This document shows, in pieces, positions 2,132-27,297 of a stretch of DNA of 40,000 nucleotides. Made by a program: the position numbers and the translations under genes. The DNA is taken from contig DAITSJ010000007.1 of NCBI GenBank assembly GCA_036843405.1, forward strand, positions 45,693 through 85,692. The letters run 5' to 3'. A model generated the notes under the pieces. The model saw nothing but the letters and a program-made list of their open reading frames with translations. It was not told the origin of the DNA and searched no databases. Numbering within the stretch: position 1 is the stretch's first letter; each line of letters begins with the position of its first letter. This DNA is from Porticoccaceae bacterium (GTDB lineage: Bacteria; Pseudomonadota; Gammaproteobacteria; Pseudomonadales; Porticoccaceae).

Positions 2132-5100
2132 GTGATTCCCATGGCACAGCAGAACACGGACACAGGCACCTGGGACTTCTGGATCGACCGGGGCGGCACC
2201 TTTACCGATATCGTCGCGCGCCGGCCCGACGGCGAACTGGTGACCCACAAGCTGCTTTCCGAGAACCCCCAGCAGTACCGGGACGCGGCCCTGCAGGGTA
2301 TCCGGGTACTGCTGGGTGTGGACGCCGGCGCGCCCATCCCCGCCGAGCGTATCCGCGCCGTCAAAATGGGCACCACCGTCGCCACCAACGCCTTGCTGGA
2401 ACGCAAGGGGGATGCCACGGTGCTGGTGATCACCGAGGGTTTTGGCGACGCCCTGCGCATCGGCTACCAGGCCCGCCCGCGGATTTTCGACCTCCATATC
2501 CGCTTGCCGGAGATGCTCTACAGCCGGGTTGTCGAGGCCCGGGAGCGCCTGAGCGCCCACGGGGAGGTGCTGGCGCCCCTGGACGAGGCAAGGATACGGC
2601 GCGATCTGCAACAGCTCTACCAGCAGGGTTTTCGCGCCCTGGCCATCTGCCTGCTCCACGGTTACCGCTATCCCGACCACGAGCGGGCCATTGCCGCCAT
2701 CGCCCGGGAGACCGGTTTTACCCAGATATCGGTGAGCAGCGAGGCCAGCCCGCTGATGAAGCTGGTGAGCCGGGGGGACACCACCGTGGTGGACGCCTAC
2801 CTCACCCCCATCCTGCGCCGCTATGTGGACCGGGTGGCCGGCGAACTGGGAGACACCCGGCTGATCTTTATGCAATCCCACGGCGGGCTGACGGATGCGC
2901 ATTTTTTCCAGGGCAAGGACGCCATTCTCTCCGGTCCCGCCGGCGGCGTGGTGAGCATGGTCCACACGGCGGGGTTGGCGGGCTTCGATCAGGTCATCGG
3001 CTTCGATATGGGCGGCACCTCCACGGATGTCAGCCATTACGATGGCGAATATGAGCGCACTTTCGAGTCGGAAGTGGCCGGGGCCCGTATCCGTGCCCCC
3101 ATGATGCTGATCCACACCGTCGCCGCCGGCGGCGGTTCCATCCTCCATTTCGACGGTGCCCGCTACCGGGTGGGCCCGGATTCCGCCGGCGCCGATCCCG
3201 GCCCCGCCTGCTACCGCCGGGGCGGCCCCCTGACGGTCACCGACTGCAACCTGATGCTGGGCAGAATCCAGCCGGATTTTTTCCCCCGGGTATTCGGCCC
3301 CGATGCCGACCAGCCCCTGGACAGGGAAGTGGTGCGGGAGAAGTTTGCCGCGCTGGCGGCGCGCATTCACCGGGAGACCGGCGACAGGCGCACCCCGGAG
3401 GAAGTGGCTGAAGGCTTTCTGGCCATTGCCGTGGAGAATATGGCCAACGCCATCAAGCGCATCTCCGTGCAGCGTGGCCACGATATCGCCGGCTATGTGC
3501 TCAACTGCTTTGGCGGCGCCGGCGGCCAGCACGCCTGTGCGGTGGCGGACGCCCTGGGCATGGAATGGGTGCTGCTCCATCCCTACAGCGGCGTACTTTC
3601 CGCCTACGGTATCGGCCTTGCGGATGTGCGGCTGATGCGCCAGCGGGCGGTGGAGGAACCCCTGGGGGACGAGCTGCTACCCCGCCTTCAAGCCCTGCTG
3701 GACGAACTGGCGGAAGACGGCCGCCGGGAGATGGCCGAGCAGCGGGTGACGGCGGAGCATACCCGGGCCGAGCGGCGGTTGCAGGTTAAATACGCCGGCA
3801 GCGACACCGCCCTGACCGTGCCCTTCGACACGGTTGCGGCAATCCGGCAATCCTTCGACGACGCCCACCGCAAGCAGTTTGGCTTTGCCAGCCCCGACAA
3901 GCCCCTGGTTGTGGAGGCGGTGCTGGTGGAAGTGATCGGCGCCAGCGATATCGCCCCGGAAAAGGCGGCGGGTCGGGGTGTTCCCCGGCCCGGCGCGGAT
4001 ATTCCCGCCGTCGCCGACATCGAGCTGGTGATGGCCGGGGAACACCGCCGGGCGCCCGTCCATGATCGCGACCGGCTGCGCCCGGGGGAACGGGTGGCGG
4101 GGCCGGCGATCGTCGTCGAGGCCAACGGCACCCTGGTGGTGGAGCCGGACTGGGAGGCGCGCATGGACCCCTACGGCCAGTTGCTGCTGCACCGGGTGGA
4201 GGCCCTGGCCGGGGGCAGGGCCATCGGCACGACGGTGGACCCGGTGATGCTGGAGATCTTCAACAACCTCTTTATGTCCATCGCCGAGCAGATGGGGGCG
4301 GTGCTGGAGAACACCGCCGTGTCCGTCAACATCAAGGAGCGGCTGGATTTCTCCTGCGCCCTGTTCGACCGGCACGGCGAGCTGGTGGCCAATGCCCCCC
4401 ATGTGCCCGTGCACCTGGGCTCCATGAGCGAGAGCATCAAATCGGTGATCCGCCAGTATGGCGGCAGCATGAAGGAAGGGGACGCCTATATGCTCAACGC
4501 CCCCTACAACGGCGGTACCCATCTGCCGGACATCACCGTGATCAAGCCGGTATTCCAGGGCGGCGAGGTGCCGTTCTACGTGGCCACCCGGGGCCACCAT
4601 GCGGATATCGGCGGCATTACCCCCGGTTCCATGCCGCCCCTGAGCCGCACCGTCGAGGAAGAAGGCGTGCTGATCGACAATATCCAGGTGGTGGACCGGG
4701 GGCGCTTTCTCGAGGGTGAGGTACGATCCCTGCTGGCCGGCGGTCCGTACCCGGCCCGTAATATCGACCAGAATATCGCCGATTTCCACGCCCAGCTCGC
4801 CGCCTGCGAGAAAGGGGTGCAGGAAATCCGTCGCATGGTGGATCACTTCGGCCTGGACGTGGTGCAGGCCTACATGGGCCATGTCCAGGACAACGCCGAG
4901 GAAGCGGTGCGGCGGGTGCTGGACGCCCTCCATGACGGTGACTTTCGCTGCCAGATGGACGACGGCAGCGCCGTCCAGGTCAGCATCCGGGTGGACAGGC
5001 AGCGCCGCCGCGCCACCGTGGATTTCGCCGGCACCAGCCCCCAGCACCCGGGCAACTTCAATGCCCCCGCCGCGGTGTGCAAGGCGGCGGTGCTCTATGT

Positions 5101-9549: not shown

Positions 9550-9673
9550 GGGGGCTCCCGTCTCGTTCCTGATGTTGTCTTCAGGGTGAGAATAGGGTCC
9601 CGGCGATGAAGCCAGCGTTTAAATCACCGTGGTATTTTCCATTTGCCCGGAAACCATCAGGTGGACCCCTTTT

Positions 9674-9699
9674 TCTGCGGTTGTCTGCAAGGGCTGCAA
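9674..9699. promoter_or_regulatory. Three direct (T)CTGC(A/G)(A/G) repeats at 10- and 9-bp spacing in the divergent intergenic region; candidate regulator binding site
   Basis: tTCTGCGGttgTCTGCAAgggCTGCAAa, with core hexamers starting at 9675, 9685 and 9694. A fourth TCTGCA lies at 9751. A TAAAAT -10-like hexamer sits at 9736-9741. Purely sequence-pattern based. Confidence 0.2.
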
Positions 9700-9784
9700 A
9701 CCCTTACGGGATTACCGCTTTCACGCAAGAGGGCGTAAAATACAAACGGTTCTGCATCCGATAGAAACCAAGGGACAGGCTGGG

Positions 9785-12730
9785 ATGGCAGAGGCACAAC
9801 TGGAACTTCGTTTTCTCGGCGACCTGGCGGTGATTCGGGAAGGCGAGGTCTTGCCACTGCCACCATCCCGCAAGACCCGTGCCCTGCTGGCCTACCTGGC
9901 CATGAATCCCCGGCCGTTTCGCCGGGAAACCCTCTGTGAACTGTTGTGGGAAATCCCCGACGATCCGCGAGGCTCCCTGCGCTGGAGCCTGTCCAAGATT
10001 CGCGGGCTGGTGAATACCCGGGACCACGTCCGGATCGTGGCGGACCGCACCTTTGTCCGTTTCGATGACAGCCATGCGGGGATCGACGTCCGGAACCTCT
10101 ACGCGCTGGCCGAAGGCAATCTGCAGGAAACCCCCATAGAGGCGCTGAAGACCGCAGCCGAAGCCTACCAGGGACTTTTCCTCGAGGGCCTGGAACTCAC
10201 CAACTTCTATACCTTTTACGCCTGGTGCGTGGCGGAACGGGAGAGGGTGACCCGGGCCCGGACCCGTATTCTCGAGGCCCTGGTTCAGCGGCTGCAGGAC
10301 ACCCCCGAGCAGGCTCTGGAGTACGCCCGGGCCCTGGTGATCAATTCCCCCTATGAGGAGGCCGCCCAAGCCAAACTGATCCGTCTGCTGGTGGAGTCCA
10401 ATCGCCCCGACGAAGCGCAGCAGCAGTATCAGCTGGGTAAGCGCATGCTGGCGGAAGTCGGTGCGGAGACCTCCGGGGCACTGTTCCGGGCCTTGCGGGG
10501 TGCGCCCGGCAGTTCTGGCGGCAGGGCCGCGGCAAAGCCGGTAGCCCCCCGGCCGGAGCAGCACAGCGATCTGGTGGGTCGGGAAGACGAAATGGGCCGG
10601 CTGACCGCTCTCTATACCCGGGTCAAGGAGCAGCGCAACGCCCGATTTGCCCTGGTCAGTGGCGCCCCGGGTATCGGCAAAAGCCGGGTGCTGGACGCAC
10701 TGGCGGCACTGGGAGAGGAGGACAATGCCAAAGTGATGCGGGCCAGCGCCGTCGAGTCAGGTCGCCTCCGGCCCTTTGCCCTGTGGCTGGAGGCTCTGGC
10801 CGGGACAGTCGGCGACCGCTGGGGCAAACCTTTCACCGATCCGGACAACCGGGAGCAGTTGCTGGCGGATCTGGCGGAACTGGTGGCCCGGGAAACCGCC
10901 AGCGGCCCGGTTATCCTGGTGCTGGATGATTTCCAGTGGTGCGACGAATCCAGTGCCGCCGCCCTGGACCATGTGGCAAGGGCCAACCTTGACCAGCCAC
11001 TGCTGGTGGTTATCGCCGGCCGGGAAAGCGAACTCAGCGACAACACCGCCACCCAGCGAACCTTCCGTTCTCTGCGGGCCGCGGGCCTGATGGAGGAGAT
11101 CCGTCTCGGTCCATTGTCGCAGGAGGCAGTGCTGCAAATTATTGATGATCAGGCGCCGGCAGCCGAATGCCAACGCCTGAGCCGGGAGTGTGGCGGGAAT
11201 CCCCTCATGGCCATTGAGCTTGCCCGGGCCTGCGCTGCCGGGGAGGGCACCGGTTCCCTGGCGCAGCTGATCCGGGAGCGGCTGTCCCGTTTTGATCTCC
11301 AGGCGGTGGACCTTCTGCGCTGGGCGGCGGTGCTGGGGGGCCGTATCCATATCGCCACCCTGGCGGACATCGCGGATATGACACAGGAGACCGTTGGGGA
11401 TGTGTTGGACCAGGCCGTGCAAGAGGCCCTGCTGGTGCCCGTGGATTACGGTTTTCGTTTCTCTCACGACCTGGTGGCCCGCTGTATCTACAATGATATC
11501 TCACCCACCCGGCAACGGGTGATGCACGGCAGGGTGGCCCGGCTGCTGGAAAAGGACACGGCACTGGACCTGGCCCAGGCCGCCGCTCTTGCCCACCATG
11601 CCTGCCTCAGCGGGGAAGCGCCACTCGCGGCCCGGGGCCTGGTGTCCGCCGGACGGCTATGCCTGCGTTTTTTCGCCAACCGGGAGGCGGTCAGCCTGGC
11701 CCGCAAGGGGCTGAGGCTGGCGCAGCAGCTCAACGACGGGGAGCGGGTGTGCCTGACACTGGAACTGGAAGAAATCCTGCTGACCGCGATGCCGCTGGAG
11801 GACTGGGAAAGCGCCGCCAGGCAGTACACCGACCTGGCCGAGCAGGCCCTGGACCATGGCGCCATCCACCACGCCCGGCTCGGCTACTATATGGCCAGCT
11901 ATGTTCGCTGGTATCAGGGTCACTGGCACAGCGCCCGGGAGGATTCCCTGCAGGCGGAACGGGTGGCCCGCGGCGGCAGCGAGGAAGACCGGATCCAGGG
12001 CATGGCGGAGGCGGCCCGATGCCTGGCCATGCTGGAACAGGACCTGCCCCGTGCCGACGCCATGCTGATGGAAGCCCGTGCCCTGGCCCGGCGCCGGGGA
12101 ATCAGCATAGAGGCCATTCCCGCCGCCGGCGGCATGCTGCGTTACCATGAAAACCGCCTTGACGAGGCCGAGGAACTGTTCAAGGAAGCACGCACCCTGG
12201 CCAAAGGCACGGGTAACCACATCGGTGAATTCCAGGCCAATGAGTACCTGGTGATGATCGACTTCGGGCGGGGTCGCTACCGGGCGGCCCTGGCGCGCTG
12301 CGGCGAGTTGATGGAACTGGGAGAGAAACTGCGGGAGGGGAGTGAGGCTCCTTTTGCCCGGGCGATGGAAGGACTGTGCCGTTATGCCCTGGAAGATGAC
12401 AGCCAGGCGCTGGACGCAGCCCTGGACGATCTGCGCAATGCGGATGCCAAGCACCGCCTGGCTTGCGTCCTCAGCCGGGCTGCGTTGCTGGATAACGAGC
12501 GGGGACACTACCGGGCGGCCCGCACCCGGGCGGAGGAGGCCCTGGCCTGCGCCGAGGCCCTGGACAGGGCGACGGAAATCATGCTTGCCCATATCGCCCT
12601 GGCCCAGGCCAACAGGCATGAGCGGGACGAATTGTCCTACCGCCACAGCCTGGCCGGCATCGCCGCCCTGGAGGGTGCCGCCGTGGCCGCCTGGGCGCGG
12701 GAGCGGGCCCGGCAGTTGGTTGAGGGATGA
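9785..12730 (+). CDS. Large transcriptional regulator: OmpR-type winged helix + BTAD (SARP/AfsR-like) N-terminus, AAA/STAND-type ATPase, C-terminal TPR-like helical repeats
   Basis: Trimmed to the ATG at 9785 (MAEAQLELRFLGDLAVIREGEVLPLPPSRKTRALLAYLAMNP...WSLSKIR, then the BTAD helices). Walker A GAPGIGKS at 10661-10684 and Walker B VILVLDDFQWCDE. Long Ala/Leu/Arg-rich helical C-terminal half. Confidence 0.85.
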   Translation: MAEAQLELRFLGDLAVIREGEVLPLPPSRKTRALLAYLAMNPRPFRRETLCELLWEIPDDPRGSLRWSLSKIRGLVNTRDHVRIVADRTFVRFDDSHAGIDVRNLYALAEGNLQETPIEALKTAAEAYQGLFLEGLELTNFYTFYAWCVAERERVTRARTRILEALVQRLQDTPEQALEYARALVINSPYEEAAQAKLIRLLVESNRPDEAQQQYQLGKRMLAEVGAETSGALFRALRGAPGSSGGRAAAKPVAPRPEQHSDLVGREDEMGRLTALYTRVKEQRNARFALVSGAPGIGKSRVLDALAALGEEDNAKVMRASAVESGRLRPFALWLEALAGTVGDRWGKPFTDPDNREQLLADLAELVARETASGPVILVLDDFQWCDESSAAALDHVARANLDQPLLVVIAGRESELSDNTATQRTFRSLRAAGLMEEIRLGPLSQEAVLQIIDDQAPAAECQRLSRECGGNPLMAIELARACAAGEGTGSLAQLIRERLSRFDLQAVDLLRWAAVLGGRIHIATLADIADMTQETVGDVLDQAVQEALLVPVDYGFRFSHDLVARCIYNDISPTRQRVMHGRVARLLEKDTALDLAQAAALAHHACLSGEAPLAARGLVSAGRLCLRFFANREAVSLARKGLRLAQQLNDGERVCLTLELEEILLTAMPLEDWESAARQYTDLAEQALDHGAIHHARLGYYMASYVRWYQGHWHSAREDSLQAERVARGGSEEDRIQGMAEAARCLAMLEQDLPRADAMLMEARALARRRGISIEAIPAAGGMLRYHENRLDEAEELFKEARTLAKGTGNHIGEFQANEYLVMIDFGRGRYRAALARCGELMELGEKLREGSEAPFARAMEGLCRYALEDDSQALDAALDDLRNADAKHRLACVLSRAALLDNERGHYRAARTRAEEALACAEALDRATEIMLAHIALAQANRHERDELSYRHSLAGIAALEGAAVAAWARERARQLVEG

Positions 12731-13934: not shown

Positions 13935-15205
13935 TGACCGTGCGGGAATGCCCACGGGTGGAGGTGGTGGTTATCGGCGCCGGCCACGCCGGCCTGGCCA
14001 TGAGCTGGTGCCTGACGGGGCGGGGCATTGACCACGTGGTACTGGAACGCGGCCAGATCGCCAATGCCTGGCGCCAGGATCGCTGGGACTCCCTGCGGCT
14101 GCTCACCCCCAACTGGCAGTGCCGGCTGCCCGGCTACCGTTATAGCGGCCCCGACCCGGACGGCTTTATGGGCCGGGAGGAGGTGGTGGACTTTATCGCC
14201 GGCTATGCCGCAAACTTCCGGGCGCCGGTGCGCACCGGTGTGACGGTCACGGCTGTCAGTGCTTTCGGCGGCGGCTACCGGGTGAATACCGATTATGGGC
14301 CCTGGGAGTGCCGGGCGCTGGTGATCGCCACCGGCGCCTTTGCCGTGCCCCGTGTGCCGGCCATCGCCGACCGGTTACCGGCAACCATAGAGCAGTACAC
14401 CGCCGGCAATTACCGCAGCCCGGGACAACTTTGCGATGGGCACGTGCTGGTGGTGGGAGGGTCCGCCACTGGAGTGCAACTGGCGGACGAAATCCGGCGC
14501 AGTGGGCGCCAGGTAACCCTGGCGGTTGGGGAGCACGTGCGCCTGCCGCGCTGTTACCGTGGACGGGATATCCAGTGGTGGCTGGACGCCATCGGTGTTC
14601 TGGACGAGCGACACGACCAGGTGGATGACCTCCACCGCGCACGGCGGGTTCCTTCGCCCCAACTCTCGGGCGCGGCGACCCTGGACCTTAACGCCCTCCA
14701 GTCCCGGGGTGTCCGGGTGGTGGGACGGCTGGCGGGGTTCAGCGACGGCAGGGCGCAGTTCTCCGGTGGCCTGCGCAACCACTGTGCACTGGCGGATCTC
14801 AAGATGAACCGCCTGTTCAGGCGCATCGACCAGTGGGCGCAGGCCCACGGGATGGACAATAACCTGCCGCCGCCGGAGGACTTTCCCGCCACCCGGGTGG
14901 ACGACAACCCCCTGCTGACGCTGGACCTGCATCGCCAGGGACTCCGGTCCCTGGTCTGGGCCACCGGGTTCCGCCCGGATTACTCCTGGCTCCGTGTGCC
15001 GGTGCTGGATCGCAAGGGCAACCTGCGCCACCACGGCGGCGTGGTGGCGCCCGGGCTGTACGCACTGGGGCTGCCTTTTATGCGCCGGCGCAGCTCGAGC
15101 TTTATCCACGGCACGGCGAACGACGCCCGGGAATTGTGCGCCCATCTGGTGGATTACCTGGAGAGCGAGTACCGACGGAGTAACTTCGCGGTGTCCATGG
15201 CTTAG
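13934..15205 (+). CDS. NAD(P)/FAD-dependent oxidoreductase, flavin-containing monooxygenase-like (CzcO-type)
   Basis: Two dinucleotide-binding motifs (VVVIGAGHAGLA; VLVVGGSATGVQLA). The start overlaps the OsmC stop (TAATG). Confidence 0.8.
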   Translation: MTVRECPRVEVVVIGAGHAGLAMSWCLTGRGIDHVVLERGQIANAWRQDRWDSLRLLTPNWQCRLPGYRYSGPDPDGFMGREEVVDFIAGYAANFRAPVRTGVTVTAVSAFGGGYRVNTDYGPWECRALVIATGAFAVPRVPAIADRLPATIEQYTAGNYRSPGQLCDGHVLVVGGSATGVQLADEIRRSGRQVTLAVGEHVRLPRCYRGRDIQWWLDAIGVLDERHDQVDDLHRARRVPSPQLSGAATLDLNALQSRGVRVVGRLAGFSDGRAQFSGGLRNHCALADLKMNRLFRRIDQWAQAHGMDNNLPPPEDFPATRVDDNPLLTLDLHRQGLRSLVWATGFRPDYSWLRVPVLDRKGNLRHHGGVVAPGLYALGLPFMRRRSSSFIHGTANDARELCAHLVDYLESEYRRSNFAVSMA

Positions 15206-15239
15206 GGTGCCGCGGTCTTCCCGTTTCTCTGGATACGGG

Positions 15240-16763
15240 TCAGTCCACTGGTTTCAGGCTGCGCAGCAGCGCAGTGATTTCCGGTTCCTCTAGTCCCTCT
15301 GCGCTGTCGACGGCCAGGGCGATCAGCCGGGCTTCGGGGGCACCGCCGAGTAATTTGGTCCAGGCCCGACGCAGGCGGATTCCGGCCTGGGAGGATGCGG
15401 TGCTTCCCGCCACGGCGTAAGTGACATAGAGGTGGCGAACTCTTTGGCTCTTTTGTAACAGTAGCCTGATATGCCGCACCTGCTCGCAGCCGTGGTTGTC
15501 GCAGACATGGCGTTCGCGGCTTGTGCCTGGCATCCAGCCGCCGTGCATGCCAAGGTCGGCTCCCGCGCTGATCTTGGTGCGGGCGTCCGCGGTTTCCCCG
15601 ACAAAGACCGAGAGGGAACGGCTATCTTTCCGGTAACCGGCGAGGGTGGAATTAATATGTTCGCCGGAGATCGCGGGATGCCAGTCGGCAGAAGGCGTTG
15701 TCCGGCGCCAGCCGTTTACGGTTTCCGGCAGTGTCGGCGATGCCGTCAAGGGAATGGCTTCCCCGGGGGAGGGGAGCAGCAGAGGCGCCGATACCACAAC
15801 CAGGGTTGTGGGCACGAGGATTGCGAGGCGCGGGAACCGGGAACGCCTGACCTCTGTCGGGCCGGTAAACGCTTCCTTTTTCAGGTATGCGAATACGGCC
15901 AGCAAGGTGATAAAGAGCAGCCCCAGCGACAACCAGTCGAAATAGACATGACCCGACAGTTCCATCTGGCTGCCGGTGATATAGTCCCAGGCCGCGATAC
16001 CGACGACGCGCAGGCCATTGGCGACAATAGCCAGCGCACCGCTGAACAGGGTCAGCGCGGCAATTTTCCACCAGCGCCGGTATATCAGAAGGGCCAGTAC
16101 CAGCCCGAGAAAGAGCGCCATGAGCAGGTAGTGGAGTCCTGCGCAATCATTGATGACCACATAGCGGTTGGATTCTACAAAAACGGCGAAACCTTCGATG
16201 CGGAAGGGTATTCCGAAAACCCGGGGGAAGGTTGCCAGCATTTCCACCGTCAGGTGTCGCAACGGTATTGTCAGAAAACCGCCCGAAGGCACCAGGAACA
16301 GGAGCAGTGCCAGCATGGGCAGTGCCCGGGTAAAAACCGTCCAGCCCAGGGCCGCCAGGGTCAGTGCCCAGACCATGGCGATCAGCGCAAACTGCCGGCC
16401 CTCGGCGATATTGAGCAGGTCGGCCGCAAGCCAGGCGCCGGCGGCAACCAGGGCGGCAGGAATGGCCCATGGGTTTGTGGCGGGTGCAGCGCCCGTGAAG
16501 TCGCCCCGACGGTGCCAGAGCAGGTAAAGAAAAACCGGCATCACCACCCAGCCATACTGGTAGGTGGCGTTGTTGTCCCAGATGGCCATCATTGCCAAAA
16601 GGCTGTCCGCGTGCGCGGCGATTGTCAGCGCCAGTGCGGCCGCCAACAGGGTCAGCGCGCTACCCCACCCGGCCTGCCCCCGAAAAGGAACAGCGATTGC
16701 GCCCGGTGGGCGGCCTTTTGGCGTTGGACAAACGGCGCTGGCGGGTACTGCGGTCTCGGTCAT
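15240..16763 (-). CDS. Exosortase (EpsH/Xrt family) with fused C-terminal EpsI-family domain
   Basis: 507 aa and polytopic. Carries the exosortase catalytic signature Cys (VINDCAGLHYL), Arg (IVANGLRVVG) and His (LSGHVYFDW). About 190 aa of soluble C-terminal EpsI-like domain (approximately 15243-15806). The ATG overlaps the upstream TGA (ATGA, 16760-16763). Subfamily not determinable by eye. Confidence 0.85.
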   Translation of the reverse strand: MTETAVPASAVCPTPKGRPPGAIAVPFRGQAGWGSALTLLAAALALTIAAHADSLLAMMAIWDNNATYQYGWVVMPVFLYLLWHRRGDFTGAAPATNPWAIPAALVAAGAWLAADLLNIAEGRQFALIAMVWALTLAALGWTVFTRALPMLALLLFLVPSGGFLTIPLRHLTVEMLATFPRVFGIPFRIEGFAVFVESNRYVVINDCAGLHYLLMALFLGLVLALLIYRRWWKIAALTLFSGALAIVANGLRVVGIAAWDYITGSQMELSGHVYFDWLSLGLLFITLLAVFAYLKKEAFTGPTEVRRSRFPRLAILVPTTLVVVSAPLLLPSPGEAIPLTASPTLPETVNGWRRTTPSADWHPAISGEHINSTLAGYRKDSRSLSVFVGETADARTKISAGADLGMHGGWMPGTSRERHVCDNHGCEQVRHIRLLLQKSQRVRHLYVTYAVAGSTASSQAGIRLRRAWTKLLGGAPEARLIALAVDSAEGLEEPEITALLRSLKPVD

Positions 16764-17605
16764 ACCAGTCGTGGTTTATCGTTGCTGCCGCTCTCTGGCA
16801 CTTTATTTGTGCCGGTCGACAGAAAAGGCTGCAACAGCACCCGGTGGAGCCGGTTGTCTCGCGGCTCACGAAAATCCTCGATTCCCAGCACCTGCCTGTT
16901 GCCTTTAACGGTTGCATTTTCCCTGTGAAGGGAACCGAAAATCCGGTCCCAGAGGGTAATTACCAGTGCGAAATTGGTATCTGTTTCGCGTCGGTCCGCG
17001 TAATGGTGAACCACATGGAAGGCGGGGGTTACGACGATATTCCTGAGAGCGCCGTCGAGCCATTGCGGCACTTCGATGTTGGCGTGGGAAAGAACGACCA
17101 CGGCGGTGGCGATCAGGCTGTATAAGAGCACCGCTTCCGGCGGTATGCCCAACAGATAGATCACGGCGAACAGGCCGGCAATACTGAGCATCACTTCCAG
17201 TGGGTGATGGCGTTCGCTGGTGGTGAAATCGATCTCCACGTCCGAGTGATGGACCCGGTGCAGCCGCCAAAGAGCGGGCACGGCGTGCATGAGGCGATGT
17301 TCCCAGTATTTCCAGACATCCAATAGCAAAATACCGGCAACCATGCCGGCAGCCGCGGGTACTCCAAGAAACGTCAGCAGACCCGTTTCCGCCTTCTGGG
17401 CGCCAAGGGCGGCGACCAGGGCCGACAAAGGCACCAGCAGCTTTTGCAGGCCGAACTGGAAACCGAACAGGGCCAGATTGGTGGACCACCTGCCGGTCAC
17501 CGGTTGCAGAGTCGGGCGGCATGGCTTGAGCAGTTCCGCCACTGCCGCCGCTCCGACGATGCCGCAGAAAACAAAGGGCAACAAGCCGGCAAGATAGCCG
17601 AGCAT
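16760..17605 (-). CDS. Fatty acid hydroxylase / sterol desaturase superfamily integral membrane di-iron enzyme
   Basis: 281 aa and hydrophobic. Three histidine boxes: WEHRLMH, LHRVHHS and FHVVHHY. Confidence 0.85.
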   Translation of the reverse strand: MLGYLAGLLPFVFCGIVGAAAVAELLKPCRPTLQPVTGRWSTNLALFGFQFGLQKLLVPLSALVAALGAQKAETGLLTFLGVPAAAGMVAGILLLDVWKYWEHRLMHAVPALWRLHRVHHSDVEIDFTTSERHHPLEVMLSIAGLFAVIYLLGIPPEAVLLYSLIATAVVVLSHANIEVPQWLDGALRNIVVTPAFHVVHHYADRRETDTNFALVITLWDRIFGSLHRENATVKGNRQVLGIEDFREPRDNRLHRVLLQPFLSTGTNKVPESGSNDKPRLV

Positions 17606-17635
17606 CGTCTTTTTACCTGATAGCGGGGGGAGCCG

Positions 17636-17833
17636 TTAGCGCTTACGCTTGACGATCCAGATTCCCGCCACCACTCCGGCTGTCGCCAGGGCCGCCAGGC
17701 CTCCGCCGCTGAACGGGACCACTGTACCCAGGGCGCTGCCCACGACCTGGCCGGCGGGAACACCCAGGGGTGCACTGGCCAGGGCATCGGCGGCCATCAG
17801 GGTGGCCGGGATAATAGCCATCAATCTAAACAT
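17636..17833 (-). CDS. 65-aa secreted mini-protein with a C-terminal exosortase-type (PEP-CTERM/GlyGly-CTERM-like) sorting signal
   Basis: ATG at 17831-17833 preceded by GAGG (gcGAGGtataccATG). Sequence: MFRLMAIIPATLMAADALA/SAPLGVPAGQVVGSALGT/VVPFSGGG-LAALATAGVVAGIWIV-KRKR-stop. Lies 30 nt upstream of the hydroxylase gene. The track ORF extends to 18013 without support. Confidence 0.6.
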   Translation of the reverse strand: MFRLMAIIPATLMAADALASAPLGVPAGQVVGSALGTVVPFSGGGLAALATAGVVAGIWIVKRKR

Positions 17834-18107
17834 GGTATACCTCGCTCTTGTTATCGGTAACGTCGCGGAGTGCGACGCCAGGCACAGGATAGAGCAGCAA
17901 ATTTCAGGCCAATCGAAAAAAGTTAGAGGAAAACAAAAGGTTGGGTGTTTTGGGGTGCGAATTTCCGAATCGGGTGTAAAGAAAGCTGGCAGTATCGAAT
18001 CCGAAACTCCCATAGCTCGGAGCAGGAAGCCGCCGGAGGATTTTCTCGCCAGATCGATGGTCCGGATGCGCGGAAGTCGTGTCCAGCGCAGGACAACGAA
18101 ACTGATC

Positions 18108-18183
18108 GGACACCGTTTCGCCGGACCAATTCCGACGCACCTTCAAATAGAGAGGGATATCGATTTGAGTGCCGGGTTGGTAG
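18108..18183. repeat. Degenerate copy of the structured intergenic repeat also present at 29158-29231
   Basis: cgtttcgccggaccaattccgacgcaccttCAAATAGAgAGGGATATCgATTTGAGTGCCgGGTTggta aligns by eye with attttcgccggtattttcggggcgcgcactCAAATAGAtAGGGATATCtATTTGAGTGCCaGGTTaata. Confidence 0.6.
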
Positions 18184-18243
18184 TACTTATCATCCTGTAA
18201 AATAAATTGGATTTTTACCCACACCCAATAAGGAAAGGAGATA

Positions 18244-21155: not shown

Positions 21156-23333
21156 TTATTTTTCCGCGGCGCGTTTCTTGGCCTCCCGGCGCCAGGCGTG
21201 AAGCAACGGTTCGGTGTAACCGCTGGGCTGCTCCCTGCCCTTGAAAACCAGATCCCTGGCCGCCTGGAAGGCGGGCGATTTTTCGTAGTCGTCGGCCATC
21301 GGGTGGTAGTCGGGATCGCCGGCGTTCTGCTGATCCACGACTTTTGCCATGCGCTTGAGGGTTTCCTCCACCTGTTCGGCACTGCAGATGCCGTGGTGCA
21401 GCCAGTTGGCGATGTGCTGGCTGGAGATGCGCAGCGTCGCCCGGTCTTCCATCAGGGCCACGTCGTGGATGTCCGGCACCTTGGAACAGCCCACGCCGTG
21501 CTCGACCCAGCGCACCACATAGCCGAGGATGCCCTGGGCATTGTTGTCCAACTCCTCCTGAATGGCTTCCGGCGAGGGCTTGTCCCCGAGCAGGGGCAGG
21601 GTGATCAGGTCATCCAGGGTCGCCCGCTGCCTGCCCGCCAGTTTCGATTGCACCTCGGCCACGTCCACCTGGTGGTAGTGCATGGCGTGCAGCACGGCGG
21701 CGGTGGGCGAGGGCACCCAGGCACAGTTGGCGCCGGCTTCCGGGTGGTTGTGCTTGGTGGCCAGCATTTCCGCCATGGCGTCGGGCTTGGGCCACATGCC
21801 CTTGCCGATCTGGGCATGGCCCTGGAGGCCGGCGGCGAGGCCAATGTCCACGTTCCAGTCCTCGTAGGCGGCGATCCAGCGCTCCTGTTTCATGGCGTTT
21901 TTGCGCACCACCGGTCCCGCTTCCATGATGCTGTGTATCTCGTCGCCGGTGCGATCGAGAAAACCGGTATTGATAAAGATCACCCGTTCCCTGGCGGCGG
22001 CTATACAGGCCTTGAGGTTGAGGGTGGTGCGCCGCTCCTCGTCCATGATGCCGATTTTCAGGGTGTGGCGGGGCAGTTTGAGGATGTCCTCGATGCGGTC
22101 GAAAAGGGTGTTGGCGAAGGCCACTTCCTCTGGGCCGTGCATTTTGGGTTTGACGATATAAACGCTGCCCGCCCGGGAGTTTTTGGGATCGCCCTCCTTC
22201 TTGTTGAGGTCGTGCAGGGCGCACAGGCTGGTCACCAGGCCGTCGAGCATGCCCTCGGGAATCTCGTCGCCCCGGGCGTCGAGCACGGCGTCGGTGGTCA
22301 TCAGGTGGCCGACGTTGCGCACCAGCAACAGGCTGCGGCCGGGAATGAAAAATGTCTCGCCCTCGGCATTCTTGTAGCGGCGATCGGGCTTGGCGCTGCG
22401 GGTCATCGTCTCGCCGCCCTTGTCGAACGTTGCCTTGAGGTCGCCCTTCATAAGGCCCAGCCAGTTGGTGTAGACCGCCACCTTGTCGTCGGCGTCCACG
22501 GCGGCCACGGAGTCTTCGCAATCCTGGATGGTGGTCAGGGCCGCCTCCAGGAGCACGTCCTTGATGCCGGCGGCATCGTCGCGGCCGATGGGGGCCTCGG
22601 CGTCGATCTGGATTTCGATATGCAGGCCGTGGTGGGTCAGCAAAAGCGCGGAGGGAGACTCTTCGTCGGACTGGTAGCCGGCGAACTGAGCCGGGTCCGC
22701 CAGGCCGGCAGTGCCGTCATCGAAGACTGCCACCAGATTGCCGGATTCGATGCGAAAGCCGGTGGTGTCCGCCCAGCTGCGCTTGTCCGCCAGGGGAGCG
22801 GCGCGATTCAGGAATTCGCGGGCCCTGGCGATGACTTTTTCGCCCCGCACCGGATTATAGTCGCCGGCCTTGCCGGCGCCGTCGGTCTCGGGGATGGCGT
22901 CGGTGCCGTAGAGAGCGTCATAGAGGCTGCCCCAGCGGGCATTGACCGCGTTCAGCGCGAAGCGGTCGTTCATTACCGGCACCACCAGCTGGGGGCCGGC
23001 CAGGGTGGCGATTTCCGGGTCCACGTTGGCGGTGCTGACCCGGAAGTCGGCCACGTCGTCGGCCAGGTAGCCGATATCCTTGAGGAAGGTCTTGTAGGCA
23101 GCCGTGTCCACCAGCCCTGGGTTTTGCCGGTGCCACTGGTCCAGTTGTCGTTGCAACTCTTCCCGCTTTGCCAGCAGTTCCCGGTTGCGAGGCACCAGGT
23201 CGGCAAGGAGCCGGGCAAAGCCCTGCCATACCGATTCCGCGCCCAGCCCGGTTGCGGGAAGGATGGCTTTCTCGATCAGGTCAGCCAGCTGAGGGGCGAC
23301 TTTGAGCCCCGCGCGCTCGATGTGGGTGTCCAT
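21156..23333 (-). CDS. glcB: Malate synthase G
   Basis: 725 aa. Full-length resemblance to GlcB, with a size and N-terminus typical of G-type malate synthases. Confidence 0.92.
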
Positions 23334-23345
23334 GGGTTCTCCTTG

Positions 23346-24635
23346 TCAGGCAGTCTGGGAAAGTTCGGGGTGTTCGGTGTCGATTCGGTACCCGGGGTCC
23401 GCGAGGGCCCTGTCTATCAATTCAATCCAGTGGATCACCGGCAATGTGCTCTCTGTCTGCAGGTGGGTCTGGCAGCCAATGTTGGCGGTGGCAATGATAT
23501 CAGGGTCGCCGCTGGTGAGAGCCTTGAGCTTGTTGGACCGCAGTTGTCTCGACAGTGCCGGTTGCAGGATCGAGTAGGTGCCCGCGGAACCGCAGCAAAG
23601 GTGACTGTCGGGCACCGGCAGGGTGTCGTAGCCGGCGGCGCGAAGCAGCCTTTCCACGGCGCCGGTGATACCCAGGCCGTGTTGCAGTGTACAGGGGGAC
23701 TGAAATGCCACGCGTCCGCGACTTTCGGCGGTGATATTGGCCTGCCGGAGTTTGGCGGTCAGCGTTTTTTCCTCGCGTACCAGCAGCTCGGAAATATCGA
23801 CGGTAAGGTCGGCGATTTTCGCGGCCCTTTCCCGGTAGCGGGTATCCCCGGCCAGGAGCTTGCCGTACTCGACGATATGGCTCCCGCAGCCGGAAGCGGT
23901 GCTTACCACGGCCTCGGCACCGTCCTCGATGGCAGGCCACCAGGCGTCGATATTGCGGCGCATGTCCCGCTCCGCCGCCTCCTGGGCGCCCAGGTGAAAG
24001 CGCAGGGCGCCACAGCAGCCGTCGGCGGGCGTGGCCGCGACGCCGATACCCAGGGCATCCAGGACGCGCGCGGCGGCGGCATTGGTGGCCGGCGAAATGC
24101 CGGGCTGGACACAGCCTTCCGGCATGACCACCCGGCGCTGGCGCTGGTGGTAGGGGCGGTCCAGGTGGTCCTGGCGGGGAGGAATTCTGGTTTTGAGCCT
24201 GCCCGGCGTCAGCGGCCTGAACAACTGGCCGGTGCGCACCAGGGCCGTGAACAACCGGCGCCGGGGCAGCACGGCCGTGAGCAGGCGACGGATCAGGCGC
24301 TGTTGCGGCGGGCGGCCCACCTGCTCGTCAACCACTTCCCGGCCGATATCCAGCAGGCGGTGATAGACCACGCCGGACGGGCAGGTGGTTTCGCAGGCCC
24401 GGCAGGTCAGGCAGCGGTCCAGGTGCAACTGGGTTTTTTCCGTGGCCGTCTCGCCTTCCAGGACGCTCTTGATAAGGTAGATGCGGCCCCGGGGCCCGTC
24501 CAGTTCGTCGCCCAGCAATTGGTAAGTGGGGCAGGTGGCCGTGCAGAAGCCACAGTGCACGCAACTGCGCAAGATGGAGTCCGCTTCCCGGCCCTTGTCC
24601 GTATCGCGAATAAAATCGGCCAGATTTGTCTGCAT
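23346..24635 (-). CDS. glcF: Glycolate oxidase iron-sulfur subunit
   Basis: CVHCGFCTATCPTY and CLTCRACETTCPSGV ferredoxin-type clusters plus C-terminal CCG domains. Confidence 0.9.
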   Translation of the reverse strand: MQTNLADFIRDTDKGREADSILRSCVHCGFCTATCPTYQLLGDELDGPRGRIYLIKSVLEGETATEKTQLHLDRCLTCRACETTCPSGVVYHRLLDIGREVVDEQVGRPPQQRLIRRLLTAVLPRRRLFTALVRTGQLFRPLTPGRLKTRIPPRQDHLDRPYHQRQRRVVMPEGCVQPGISPATNAAAARVLDALGIGVAATPADGCCGALRFHLGAQEAAERDMRRNIDAWWPAIEDGAEAVVSTASGCGSHIVEYGKLLAGDTRYRERAAKIADLTVDISELLVREEKTLTAKLRQANITAESRGRVAFQSPCTLQHGLGITGAVERLLRAAGYDTLPVPDSHLCCGSAGTYSILQPALSRQLRSNKLKALTSGDPDIIATANIGCQTHLQTESTLPVIHWIELIDRALADPGYRIDTEHPELSQTA

Positions 24636-24662
24636 AAAATGGTGCCAGTGCTCGGGTCGCTG

Positions 24663-25730
24663 TCAGAGATCGCGGTACAACCGGCCCGGATTAAAAATCC
24701 CGTCCGGGTCGAATTGTGCTTTCAGGCGCTGATGGAGTGCCATCACCGGTTCCGGCAGGGGCTCGAAAATGTCGGCCCGCTCGCCGCCGCGAAAGAGGGT
24801 GGCATGGCCTCCCGCCTCGCGGGCCAAGAGGCGTACCTCTCTGGCCGGCATGTCGGTGCGCAGCCAGCGCTGGGTGCCGTGCCATTCGAGCAGAATGTCG
24901 GCGGCTTCAATGGGCAAGGCCCCGGTGTTGGCCGGTACCGAAATGCGCCACAGCGGGACATCGCCGTTTCCGAAAAATGCCAGTTGTTGTTCCCGTAAGT
25001 CCCGCCAGAAGCGTTCGCCCTCGCGGTCCTCCAGGATGGTGCCGCCCAGGGTGCGGGCTGCCGTGGCCACTGCCGCTTCGGCGCCGGAGAGCCTGACGGT
25101 GAGTTCGCCACCCTCCCAGGCGGTGGCGGAAACGGGCAGTGGTTGCCGGCGCCAGCGTGTCACCGCTGTCAGCGCCTCTTCCTGGGATAGTGAGAGACGC
25201 AGGCTGGTTTCGCGAATGGGGCGGGGCAGAACCTTGAAGGAGACTTCCAGGACCAGACCCAGTATGCCCATGCTGCCCGCCAGCAGCCGTGAGATATCGT
25301 AGCCGGCGACGTTTTTCATGACCTGGCCGCCAAACTCCATTATCCGGCCCCGGCCGTCCATCAACCGGGTGCCCAGCACAAAATCCCGCAACGGCCCGGC
25401 CTGGGCCCGGCGGGGGCCGGACAAGCCCGCCGCCAGGCAGCCCCCCACGGTGGCGTCCCCGAAACCTGGCGGTTCGAAGGCCAGCATCTGGCCCCGCTCC
25501 GCCAGGGCCGCTTCCAGTTCGGCCAGGGGCGTACCGCAGCGGGCGGTGACAACCAACTCCGTGGGCTCGTAGCCGACGATGCCCCGGTAGTCGCGTGTGT
25601 CGAATAGCTCCCCGGTGGCGGGTTCGCCGTAAAAGTCCTTGCTGCCGCCGCCGCGCAGGCGAAGGCCGGTGCGATTCGCCGAGGCGGCCTGGACAATTTC
25701 CCGCCAGCGCGTGAGTACGGCTTCCATCAA
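24663..25730 (-). CDS. glcE: Glycolate oxidase FAD-binding subunit
   Basis: 355 aa. LRLRGGGSKDFYG motif. The start overlaps the glcD stop (ATGA, 25727-25730). Confidence 0.88.
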   Translation of the reverse strand: MMEAVLTRWREIVQAASANRTGLRLRGGGSKDFYGEPATGELFDTRDYRGIVGYEPTELVVTARCGTPLAELEAALAERGQMLAFEPPGFGDATVGGCLAAGLSGPRRAQAGPLRDFVLGTRLMDGRGRIMEFGGQVMKNVAGYDISRLLAGSMGILGLVLEVSFKVLPRPIRETSLRLSLSQEEALTAVTRWRRQPLPVSATAWEGGELTVRLSGAEAAVATAARTLGGTILEDREGERFWRDLREQQLAFFGNGDVPLWRISVPANTGALPIEAADILLEWHGTQRWLRTDMPAREVRLLAREAGGHATLFRGGERADIFEPLPEPVMALHQRLKAQFDPDGIFNPGRLYRDL

Positions 25731-27211
25731 AACCTCGGCAGTTCCGGAAAGGGCACATTGCCCTTATGGACATGCATGGCGCCATATTCGGCGCAGCGGT
25801 GCAGGCTGGGAATGCCCTTGCCCGGGTTGAGCAGGCCGGCCGGGTCCAGGGCGTTCTTGACGGCGCGGAAGGCGTCCAGGGCATCCTCGCTGTACTGGAC
25901 GCACATCTGGTCGATCTTCTCGGCACCCACGCCGTGCTCGCCGGTAATGGAACCGCCGAACTGCACCGACCGTTCGAGTATTTCGGCGCCGAATGCCTCG
26001 GCCCGTTCCAGTTCCCCGGGCTTGTTGGCATCGAACATGATCAGGGGATGCAGGTTGCCGTCGCCGGCGTGAAAGACGTTGGCGCAGCGCAGGTTGTATT
26101 TTTCCTCCATGGCGTTAATGGCGGTGAGCATTTCCCCCAGATGTTTGCGCGGAATAGTGCCGTCCATGCAGTAGTAGTCCGGGGAAATACGCCCGATGGC
26201 GGGGAAGGCGGCCTTGCGGCCCGCCCAGTACAACAGCCGCTCCTGCTCGTTGCCCGACACTTTCAGGGAGGTGGCGCCGTTTTCTTCCAGCACCGTACGG
26301 ATACGGGCAATTTCCTCGGCCACCTCTTCCTCGGTGCCGTCGGATTCCGCCAGCAGAATGGCGGCGGCCTCCAGGTCGTAGCCGGCGTTCACAAAGGGCT
26401 CAACGGCGGCGGTGGCGGCCTTGTCCATCATTTCCAGCCCCGCCGGGATAATGCCCGCGGCGATGATCGCCGCCACGGCATTGCCGGCCTTGTTGACATC
26501 GTCAAACGAGGCCATCACCACCTGGGCGCAGGGGGGCGTGGGCGTCAGGTTGACGGTCACCTCGGTGACAACCCCGAGCAGGCCCTCTGAGCCGATGCTC
26601 AGGGCCAGCAGATCCAGCCCGGGAGATTCCGGGGCGGTACCGCCCAGGGCCACCGGCGTGCCATCCGCCAGGATCATGCGCACGGACAGGACATTGTGGA
26701 CCGTGAGGCCGTACTTGAGGCAGTGCACACCGCCGGAGTTCTCGGCGACGTTGCCGCCGATGGTGCAGGCAATCTGGGAGGAGGGATCGGGTGCGTAGTA
26801 GAGCCCGTGGGGCGCGGCGGCCTCGGAGATGGCCAGGTTGCGCACGCCCGGCTGAACCACCGCGAGGCGCTGTTCCGGGTCGAGGGACAGGATATCTTTC
26901 ATCCTGGCCAGGGATACCACCACGCCCTGGGCATGGGGCAGCGCACCGCCGGACAGTCCCGTGCCGGCGCCCCGTGGCACCATGGGCACGCCCAGCCGAT
27001 GGCAGGTGCGCAGGACAGCAATAACCTGTTCCTCGTTCTCGGGCAGGACCACGGCCAGCGGCAGTTCGCAGTAGGCCGAGAGCCCGTCGCATTCATAGGG
27101 GCGAAGGTCCTCGACATCGCTCAGGACGCAATGGCGGGGAAGCCGGCGATAAAGCTCGGCAATCAGAGGTTCGCGATCAACCTCGAAGGCGGCATCGTTG
27201 ATAAATGACAT
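25727..27211 (-). CDS. glcD: Glycolate oxidase subunit GlcD (FAD-linked oxidase)
   Basis: 494 aa. PRGAGTGLSGGALP FAD-binding motif and full-length GlcD-like sequence. Confidence 0.92.
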   Translation of the reverse strand: MSFINDAAFEVDREPLIAELYRRLPRHCVLSDVEDLRPYECDGLSAYCELPLAVVLPENEEQVIAVLRTCHRLGVPMVPRGAGTGLSGGALPHAQGVVVSLARMKDILSLDPEQRLAVVQPGVRNLAISEAAAPHGLYYAPDPSSQIACTIGGNVAENSGGVHCLKYGLTVHNVLSVRMILADGTPVALGGTAPESPGLDLLALSIGSEGLLGVVTEVTVNLTPTPPCAQVVMASFDDVNKAGNAVAAIIAAGIIPAGLEMMDKAATAAVEPFVNAGYDLEAAAILLAESDGTEEEVAEEIARIRTVLEENGATSLKVSGNEQERLLYWAGRKAAFPAIGRISPDYYCMDGTIPRKHLGEMLTAINAMEEKYNLRCANVFHAGDGNLHPLIMFDANKPGELERAEAFGAEILERSVQFGGSITGEHGVGAEKIDQMCVQYSEDALDAFRAVKNALDPAGLLNPGKGIPSLHRCAEYGAMHVHKGNVPFPELPRF

Positions 27212-27265
27212 GGGTTCTCTGTGGTCACGCCCCGTCCGGGCTCCGGGGCCGGCTGCAATTAAAAA

Positions 27266-27297
27266 AACTGACTAACTGACAGTTATTTACTTTGCAA
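27266..27297 (+). promoter_or_regulatory. Candidate TetR operator / shared promoter motif upstream of the TetR gene
   Basis: AACTGACtAACTGACAGTTATTTACTTTGCAA. It contains the perfect 13-bp palindrome TAACTGACAGTTA (27273-27285). Related motifs lie at 34836-34861 and 33578-33611 (minus orientation). Confidence 0.35.

Follow-up and report, generated by a model that had tools for sequence, protein, structure and literature searches.

The XrtA/PEP-CTERM (EpsH) system was described in 2006 (Haft 2006, PMC1569441), and since then it has been asked to which acceptor exosortases transfer their substrates; it is still unclear whether these enzymes act by transpeptidation in one step, and the acceptor is not known (Haft 2023 preprint). 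Other sorting systems are dedicated one-to-one pairs of enzyme and target, for example MrtJ and JDVT-CTERM (Haft 2023 preprint). The artA gene is syntenic with pssA and pssD in Methanosarcina, PssA and PssD are needed in Haloferax for both the lipidation and the cleavage of ArtA substrates, and a lipid amine has been proposed as the nucleophile that resolves the ArtA thioester intermediate (PMC7157517). Here we describe a three-gene cassette on the minus strand of a 40,000-nt stretch of DNA from a Porticoccaceae bacterium (contig DAITSJ010000007.1; hereafter the window), in which a gene for a mini-protein, the candidate substrate, is followed by genes for a membrane di-iron hydroxylase and for an exosortase fused to an EpsI domain. 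These genes almost certainly constitute a real, dedicated exosortase-hydroxylase-mini-substrate system.

The order mini-ORF (open reading frame), hydroxylase, exosortase recurs in 22 independent loci, a count in which the window is included, as is a contig for which gene calls were the sole source. In all of them the hydroxylase gene lies directly upstream of the exosortase gene and a small ORF lies directly upstream of the hydroxylase gene, the arrangement by which a dedicated one-to-one sorting system is recognized (Haft 2023 preprint). The evidence was pooled from the genomic contexts of exosortase homologues, a scan of species-representative genomes with an alignment as query and tblastn searches of the loci retrieved, and all three agree; a single-sequence exosortase query found nothing in genome contigs, and the alignment-based scan was needed. 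Hosts belong to the Alphaproteobacteria (Rhodospirillaceae, Rhodovibrio, Pelagibius, Sphingomonadales), the Betaproteobacteria (Polaromonas, Rhodoferax, Burkholderiaceae, Casimicrobiaceae, Rhodocyclaceae) and the Gammaproteobacteria (Hahella, besides the window), and three of them are cultured: Rhodovibrio salinarum (DSM 9154), Pelagibius marinus and Polaromonas sp. UC242_47. Hydroxylase and exosortase form a single ORF of ~770-780 amino acids (aa) in 8 of 21 loci, and in the other 13 the two genes overlap or are at most 16 nt apart. Apparent split ORFs in three loci (L016, L019 and L023) proved to be alternative-frame artefacts, the genes being intact fusions. A word-indexed exosortase search gave 16 matches and understates the family, for which an exhaustive profile search of 1.84 billion representatives revealed ~60 clusters (at 50% identity) of window-type exosortases, 22 of them hydroxylase-exosortase-EpsI fusions. 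Since the three-part order is found in 22 independent loci and the fusion in 22 clusters, the adjacency is far beyond chance, and we conclude that the three genes are a conserved module and not a chance neighbourhood. An all-against-all comparison of flanking ORFs across 27 loci revealed no fourth conserved gene, and no extracellular polysaccharide (EPS) locus was seen in the window or in the locus flanks.

The exosortase belongs to a subtype of its own. Pfam recognizes both of its domains (PF09721 Exosortase_EpsH, E 2.6e-40, 138.8 bits against a cutoff of 25.7; PF11984 DUF3485/EpsI, E 1.7e-11, 44.6 bits against 26.1), a Cys pair in the EpsI domain is invariant among relatives, and the window protein exceeds the cutoffs of the generic model TIGR02602 (118.4 bits against 105.55) and of the TIGR04178 signature (38.8 bits against 23). 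The EpsI model TIGR02914 scores below its cutoff of 42.8 in the window protein (30.7) and at 47.8 in the R. salinarum orthologue. XrtA (TIGR03109) is the best NCBIfam model, yet the window protein reaches only 180.6 bits against a cutoff of 208 and the 11 other family members tested score 126-163, while the next tier of the profile search, with 244-352 bits on the same model, consists of true XrtA enzymes and is separated from the family by a clean gap. The models for XrtB, C, D, N, Q, V and W and for cyanoexosortase all score far below their cutoffs (XrtW, for example, 103 against 425, and XrtD 82 against 400), and the NCBI names of the orthologues are generic only ('exosortase/archaeosortase family protein' or 'EpsI'). 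These profile scores mark the enzyme as a separate subtype that is sister to XrtA and that the NCBIfam subtype models do not cover.

The hydroxylase matches PF04116 FA_hydroxylase (E 1e-29, 104 bits against a cutoff of 31) and carries the His-box pattern of that family (HX3-4H, HX2-3HH, HX2-3HH). Ten histidines (H103, H107, H116, H119, H120, H134, H174, H197, H200 and H201) are invariant in 16 relatives, separate as well as fused, and because all ten are conserved the enzyme should be active. OlsE (NF052566) is the sole NCBIfam relative besides one insignificant match (E 0.082); it aligns over nearly the full length and is a hydroxylase of the ornithine-lipid headgroup at C4, according to Holzl 2018 as cited in PMC11631085. 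The OlsE model gives 85 bits for the window protein and 85-97 bits for all members tested, whether from cassettes, fused or stand-alone, where its equivalog cutoff is 475. Stand-alone paralogues of ~39% identity have no exosortase nearby, and family-specific positions set the two groups apart, with WKYxEHR and ERHHP in the cassette hydroxylases and AIYLQH and ARFHP in the stand-alone paralogues. In a sequence search of the PDB the hydroxylase was only marginally similar to Scs7p (E 0.73).

Alignment of the 21 syntenic mini-proteins revealed a common plan: a signal peptide ending in AxA, zero to eight xxLG repeats, a short motif, a transmembrane helix and an RRK(R/Q) tail, with A19 invariant and A17 and P40 nearly so. 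Gly comes directly after AxA in at least 90 of the 132 mini-proteins in which the leader site was counted. A logo over 126 sequences reads [ST]-[AVG]-L(107)-P-I(82)-A(72)-[GS]-G-G(101)-L-L, its Pro typically lying 22 residues ahead of the basic tail. Predicted mature parts have a median of ~32 aa, fall to 5-10 aa in three loci (L006, L004 and L027) and are composed of 21% Gly, 20% Leu, 0.0% Lys and ~2% charged residues; the one of R. salinarum reads GAAVPLGSQLGSSLGATLGSALGSSLP.... The exact 75-aa R. salinarum mini-protein is absent from the protein collection, where it may be unannotated or have its start called differently. A profile search found 151 mini-protein clusters, and the best 120 of these 151 are all 50-134 aa long, have no Pfam domain and are annotated 'hypothetical' or spuriously named; the profile spans leader and repeats, and large proteins with only the ~30-aa tail would escape it. 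Six members (P0288, P0326, P0342, P0350, P0371 and P0376; 55-95 aa) bear spurious automatic names from the Joint Genome Institute, which calls mini-proteins 'flavin-dependent dehydrogenase' or 'predicted MFS family arabinose efflux permease'.

The mini-proteins show the generic features of C-terminal sorting-signal proteins, namely a signal peptide, a motif abutting a transmembrane helix and a basic cluster, and none of the curated sorting-signal models recognizes the 21 aligned sequences: the PEP-CTERM model TIGR02595 matches three of them with a best E of 0.13, and PF07589 matches one. The near-invariant Pro-Glu-Pro is absent from the logo, which has L-P-[IVL]-x-x-G-G instead. By alignment and logo, the mini-proteins are a new substrate family with a new sorting motif, [ST][AVG]-L-P-I-A-[GS]-G-G. 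Classical PEP-CTERM-type tails occur within 1-2 kb of the cassette in two loci (L001:11279-12007 and L006:3681-4550), on a VWA/DUF1194 protein ending LPEPGSMALLGLGLAALGFARRRHS and on a 289-aa protein ending VPVPATFGLLGVGLFGLGVMKRLRR. Two further loci (L008:364-2432 and 2584-3174; L024:4902-8224) hold a sister exosortase-EpsI system that lacks a hydroxylase, where the mini-protein differs, ending ...GTPVDD[ML]A[ML]LGLAVAALAAGV.VIR.KK, and where both copies are accompanied by a conserved upstream gene for a secreted protein of ~135 aa and a downstream gene for a GspH-like pseudopilin.

The preliminary description of this locus, made from the sequence of the window, had pictured a self-contained system with one dedicated tiny substrate and a hydroxylase coupled to the sortase. 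The coupling was borne out by an ATGA overlap of the two genes in the window and by their fusion, overlap or close spacing elsewhere, and the suggested look at gene neighbourhoods for co-occurrence of hydroxylase, exosortase and short ORF revealed the order in three bacterial classes. The dedicated substrate is upheld by the co-located mini-ORF, whereas the words 'orphan' and 'one substrate' hold for the 40-kb window and the 6-10-kb flanks of the other loci. Its suggestion that the processed peptide may be handed to a hydroxylated or desaturated lipid would agree with the fusion, the OlsE homology and the archaeal precedent. The proposed comparison with the exosortase subfamily, EpsI and FA_hydroxylase models returned superfamily matches and a sub-cutoff XrtA score, and the supposition that no exosortase subtype defined by a partner hydroxylase had been described agrees with the lack of a curated model and of any such report in the literature searched. 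The opposite outcome that it had envisaged, an ordinary XrtA with unconserved neighbours, is contradicted by the same score and by the adjacency in 22 loci.

We used hydropathy and the positive-inside rule for topology. The His-bearing loops and the C-terminus of the hydroxylase are predicted to be cytoplasmic, and so is the N-terminus of the exosortase, which is consistent with the order of the two parts in the fusions. C207, R252 and H272 would lie at the periplasmic ends of helices, and the EpsI domain would be periplasmic. An AlphaFold2 model of the fusion protein P0008 has a predicted local distance difference test score (pLDDT) of 86.9 and a predicted template modelling score (pTM) of 0.77, with only the linker 263-270 disordered. 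A sequence search of the PDB yielded no exosortase structure. The best local Foldseek matches of the EpsI domain of P0008 (residues ~600-770) were the Eag chaperones SciW/EagT6, followed by MTC28 and PsbP (probabilities 0.8-0.87, E 0.26-0.33, TM-scores 0.36-0.40). Eag chaperones bind transmembrane helices of type VI secretion system effectors, which gives a weak hint of a possible role of EpsI in holding hydrophobic stretches of protein in the periplasm.

That the partner hydroxylase is fused to the exosortase suggests that a membrane lipid takes part in the reaction. The mini-protein would be exported by the Sec pathway and lose its leader to signal peptidase, and Cys207 at the periplasmic face would then cleave at the motif, forming an acyl-enzyme (a Cys thioester). 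From there the peptide would go to a nucleophile in the membrane, a lipid (most plausibly an amino- or hydroxy-lipid) that the hydroxylase, physically coupled and with its active site toward the cytoplasm, would generate or tailor, and the product would be a C-terminally lipid-linked mini-peptide in the envelope. On the grounds of the fusion, the homology to OlsE and the ArtA-PssA/PssD precedent, we put the probability that the exosortase hands the peptide to a hydroxylase-tailored membrane lipid at roughly one in two. Rather more tentatively, and with some doubt, we propose that the hydroxylase makes or tailors the lipid nucleophile of this very exosortase and that the cassette may be a minimal factory for a ribosomal, C-terminally lipid-linked Gly/Leu-repeat mini-peptide; if true, an acceptor would be defined for the first time for a bacterial exosortase, and the product would represent a new class of lipopeptide in the envelope.

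Several observations weigh against a lipid acceptor or against a self-contained module. A lipid from the cytoplasmic-facing hydroxylase would have to flip to reach the periplasmic triad; the cassette holds no acyltransferase or aminolipid-synthesis gene; and the OlsE score is far under its cutoff. Classical PEP-CTERM proteins stand near the cassette in L001 and L006, and further substrates may be encoded elsewhere in the genomes, the search having covered the window and the flanks. In one alphaproteobacterial metagenome-assembled genome (MAG), an exosortase-EpsI of the family type (L012:5974-7545; 36% identity, XrtA score 153.8, below the cutoff) has neither hydroxylase nor mini-ORF within its 13-kb locus.

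Several other explanations were weighed against a hydroxylase-tailored lipid acceptor. The hydroxylase might modify the mini-protein itself, on its transmembrane anchor or on a peptide residue, before or during export, after which the exosortase would cleave or transfer the modified peptide. Such a role would fit the obligate coupling or fusion, the lack of a lipid-biosynthesis gene in the cassette, and the anchor and tail of the mini-protein, which are conserved and reachable from the cytoplasmic side; against this, the characterized enzymes of the superfamily act on lipids, OlsE, which comes closest among the named relatives, is a lipid hydroxylase, and the peptide offers only Leu, Gly and Pro as conserved residues. 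To our knowledge, all characterized FA_hydroxylase-superfamily members have lipid substrates. By hydropathy, the conserved mature part would be periplasmic and the His boxes cytoplasmic, and because the hydroxylase site would thus be on the other side from the peptide, a lipid substrate is the more plausible and peptide hydroxylation appears unlikely. We assign a similarly low probability to an exosortase that merely releases a small hydrophobic peptide resembling a glycine zipper (membrane-active, a signal or bacteriocin-like), with the hydroxylase remodelling the lipids of the producer for tolerance or insertion. Uncharged Gly/Leu-rich repeats of period 4 do follow the glycine-zipper pattern, the mini-proteins have weak, non-significant matches to glycine-zipper and class IIc bacteriocin models, and the genomic context is variable and sometimes mobile; however, the shortest mature peptides, of ~5-10 residues, would not be long enough for a zipper that spans the membrane, the Cys/Arg/His triad matches what a transpeptidase should have, and a tolerance role alone leaves the repeated single-polypeptide fusion unexplained.

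Less probable still is head-to-tail transpeptidation, in which the N-terminal Gly would resolve the acyl-enzyme to give cyclic or concatenated (xxLG)n peptides and the hydroxylase would have an accessory membrane role. Sortase-type chemistry uses N-terminal Gly nucleophiles, and the frequent Gly after AxA would suit it, as would the lack of Lys, which makes the N-terminus the sole amine. The mature region is 21% Gly in any case, however, the N-terminal Gly is missing in about a quarter of the members, the window protein having Ser, and the obligate hydroxylase partner would be unexplained. That the enzyme is an ordinary XrtA serving PEP-CTERM proteins encoded elsewhere, with the hydroxylase and mini-ORF as chance neighbours, is very improbable: XrtA is the best-scoring NCBIfam model and two loci have classical PEP-CTERM proteins near the cassette, but every tested member falls below the XrtA cutoff across a clean gap from the true XrtA enzymes, the adjacency is conserved in 22 loci, 22 clusters are fusions and EPS genes were not found nearby. 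We rejected this explanation on the sub-cutoff scores, the conserved adjacency and the fusions.

The features of the cassette in the window, whose three ORFs were read from the ORF list and the sequence, are collected in Table 1. As reported in the preliminary description, three minus-strand genes lie in tight order at exactly the coordinates given there, with a Shine-Dalgarno sequence of its own ahead of the mini-ORF, a 30-nt gap before the hydroxylase gene and an ATGA overlap between hydroxylase and exosortase genes, and the three His boxes, the exosortase signature (NDCAGL, ANGLRV, SGHVYF) and the fused EpsI-type domain were likewise present. The overlap is taken as indicating translational coupling of hydroxylase and exosortase. 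The borders also agree with that description: the convergent gene on one side encodes a flavin oxidoreductase and ends at 15205, with 34 nt between it and the exosortase stop, and the 410-bp upstream intergenic region has 49.8% GC against 64.1% for the whole window. A site scan found no terminator-like site within the 30-nt spacer, matches elsewhere being disregarded as they fell inside coding sequence, and a sigma-70 consensus scan found no minus-strand site in the upstream intergenic region. Rfam gave no match in the upstream region and cassette apart from ALIL at 15072-15214, which was taken as chance (15.4 bits against a gathering score of 50, E 0.74). The NCBI MAG GCA_002388905.1 matches the window, and the 65-aa ORF is annotated as a gene there.

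Table 1. Features of the exosortase cassette and its upstream region, in window coordinates
Feature	Position	Strand	Basis
Mini-substrate gene, 65 aa	17636..17833 (stop codon included)	-	ORF list
FA_hydroxylase-superfamily membrane di-iron hydroxylase gene, 281 aa	16760..17605	-	ORF list, PF04116
Exosortase-EpsI gene, 507 aa	15240..16763	-	ORF list, PF09721 and PF11984
Shine-Dalgarno sequence GAGG of mini-ORF, 6 nt ahead of ATG (17833)	17840..17843	-	sequence reading
Spacer, 30 nt, mini-ORF stop to hydroxylase ATG	17606..17635	-	sequence reading
ATGA overlap, hydroxylase TGA / exosortase ATG	16760..16763	-	ORF coordinates and sequence
Upstream intergenic region, 410 bp, presumed promoter region, between cassette and divergent PNPOx-like gene	17834..18243	.	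GC, scans
Mini-protein: predicted signal peptide, aa 1-19, ends ALA (AxA)	17777..17833	-	alignment
Mini-protein: predicted first mature residue, Ser	17774-17776	-	alignment
Mini-protein: VPFSGGG, aa 39-45, presumed exosortase recognition/cleavage site	17699..17719	-	alignment and logo
Mini-protein: C-terminal transmembrane helix, aa 46-61, and basic tail KRKR, aa 62-65	17639..17698	-	alignment
Hydroxylase: His box HRLMH	17285-17299	-	sequence
Hydroxylase: His box HRVHH	17246-17260	-	sequence
Hydroxylase: His box HVVHH	17003-17017	-	sequence
Exosortase: core of eight transmembrane helices	~15888-16631	-	Pfam and hydropathy
Exosortase: predicted catalytic C207	16143-16145	-	invariant in 11 relatives
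Exosortase: predicted catalytic R252	16008-16010	-	invariant in 11 relatives
Exosortase: predicted catalytic H272	15948-15950	-	invariant in 11 relatives
EpsI domain, predicted periplasmic	~15255-15806	-	PF11984

The neighbouring genes in the window are unrelated metabolic ones (oxidoreductases, OsmC, PNPOx, malate synthase and similar), with no EPS genes among the cassette neighbours in the 40 kb. The surroundings (9623-12730 and 21156-27271) include a gene for a large regulator of the BTAD and AAA_16/STAND type (1035 aa) and, on the other side of the cassette, genes for malate synthase G and a GlcF-like Fe-S subunit, a side that runs on into FAD_binding_4 (GlcD/E-like) genes in the NCBI copy; none of these genes has an apparent relation to the cassette. 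GC content at third codon positions is 0.69-0.74 in the cassette against 0.74-0.86 in the adjoining genes, one copy lies among resolvase and phage-integrase genes (L006:1517-15330) and the genomic context is different at every locus, which together suggest that the module is horizontally mobile. Viral contigs contained no relatives of the module, arguing that it is not phage-borne.

Classical XrtA is hard to study, with dozens of large glycosylated substrates and big EPS loci, and the module cuts the problem down to a single 50-90-aa peptide that carries almost no cargo, together with a single exosortase and a single partner enzyme. Because the substrate is minimal and cultured hosts exist, the acceptor question becomes directly testable, and because the module is present in cultured strains, its product could be identified directly by mass spectrometry. 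The module may offer a simple route to what exosortases attach their substrates to. Three families hitherto annotated generically are now defined: the exosortase subtype, the LPIxxGG-type signal with its mini-proteins and the hydroxylase clade.

Full-text literature searches found 'exosortase' never paired with 'fatty acid hydroxylase' or 'sterol desaturase', and the papers that contain both 'exosortase' and 'hydroxylase' are unrelated as judged by their titles and abstracts. Among the closest described systems is XrtA/PEP-CTERM, with which the cassette shares an exosortase core of eight transmembrane helices, the Cys/Arg/His triad and the fused EpsI domain, and with whose substrates the mini-proteins share the signal peptide, the C-terminal motif abutting a transmembrane helix and the basic tail. 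It departs from that system in its scores (126-181 bits against the XrtA cutoff of 208), in a motif L-P-I-A-G-G-G in place of P-E-P, in the lack of an EPS locus, in having one co-located mini-substrate where XrtA has dozens of larger proteins, and in its obligate hydroxylase partner or fusion. N-acyl amino acid synthases, lipid/aminolipid enzymes too, are reportedly linked to PEP-CTERM/exosortase loci, a comparable genetic association; unlike the cassette hydroxylase, they are acyltransferases, lie in large XrtA/EPS loci and are unfused. JDVT-CTERM/MrtJ resembles the cassette in its single target co-operonic with the enzyme, its sporadic taxonomy and its conserved two- or three-gene neighbourhood, whereas MrtJ is a CPBP/Rce1-like protease and the cassette enzyme an exosortase, the cassette target is essentially without a cargo domain, and the hydroxylase is a third component. 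The cassette also resembles ArtA-PssA/PssD, in which a sortase-like protein from the exosortase superfamily has genetic links to enzymes of membrane lipids that provide the anchor lipid, but there the partners comprise a headgroup synthase and a decarboxylase in place of an oxygenase and are never fused, the substrates are large S-layer or surface proteins and the hosts are archaea. OlsE, which is proteobacterial as well, belongs to the superfamily of the cassette hydroxylase, shares its His boxes and aligns over nearly its full length, but the cassette enzymes score 85-97 bits against 475, bear their own WKYxEHR/ERHHP signatures and have no adjacent ols genes. The novelty lies in the exosortase subtype, in the sorting signal and the family of mini-substrates that carry it, and in the enzyme partnership; the concept of dedicated one-to-one sorting and an XrtA-like enzyme are the known ground on which they stand.

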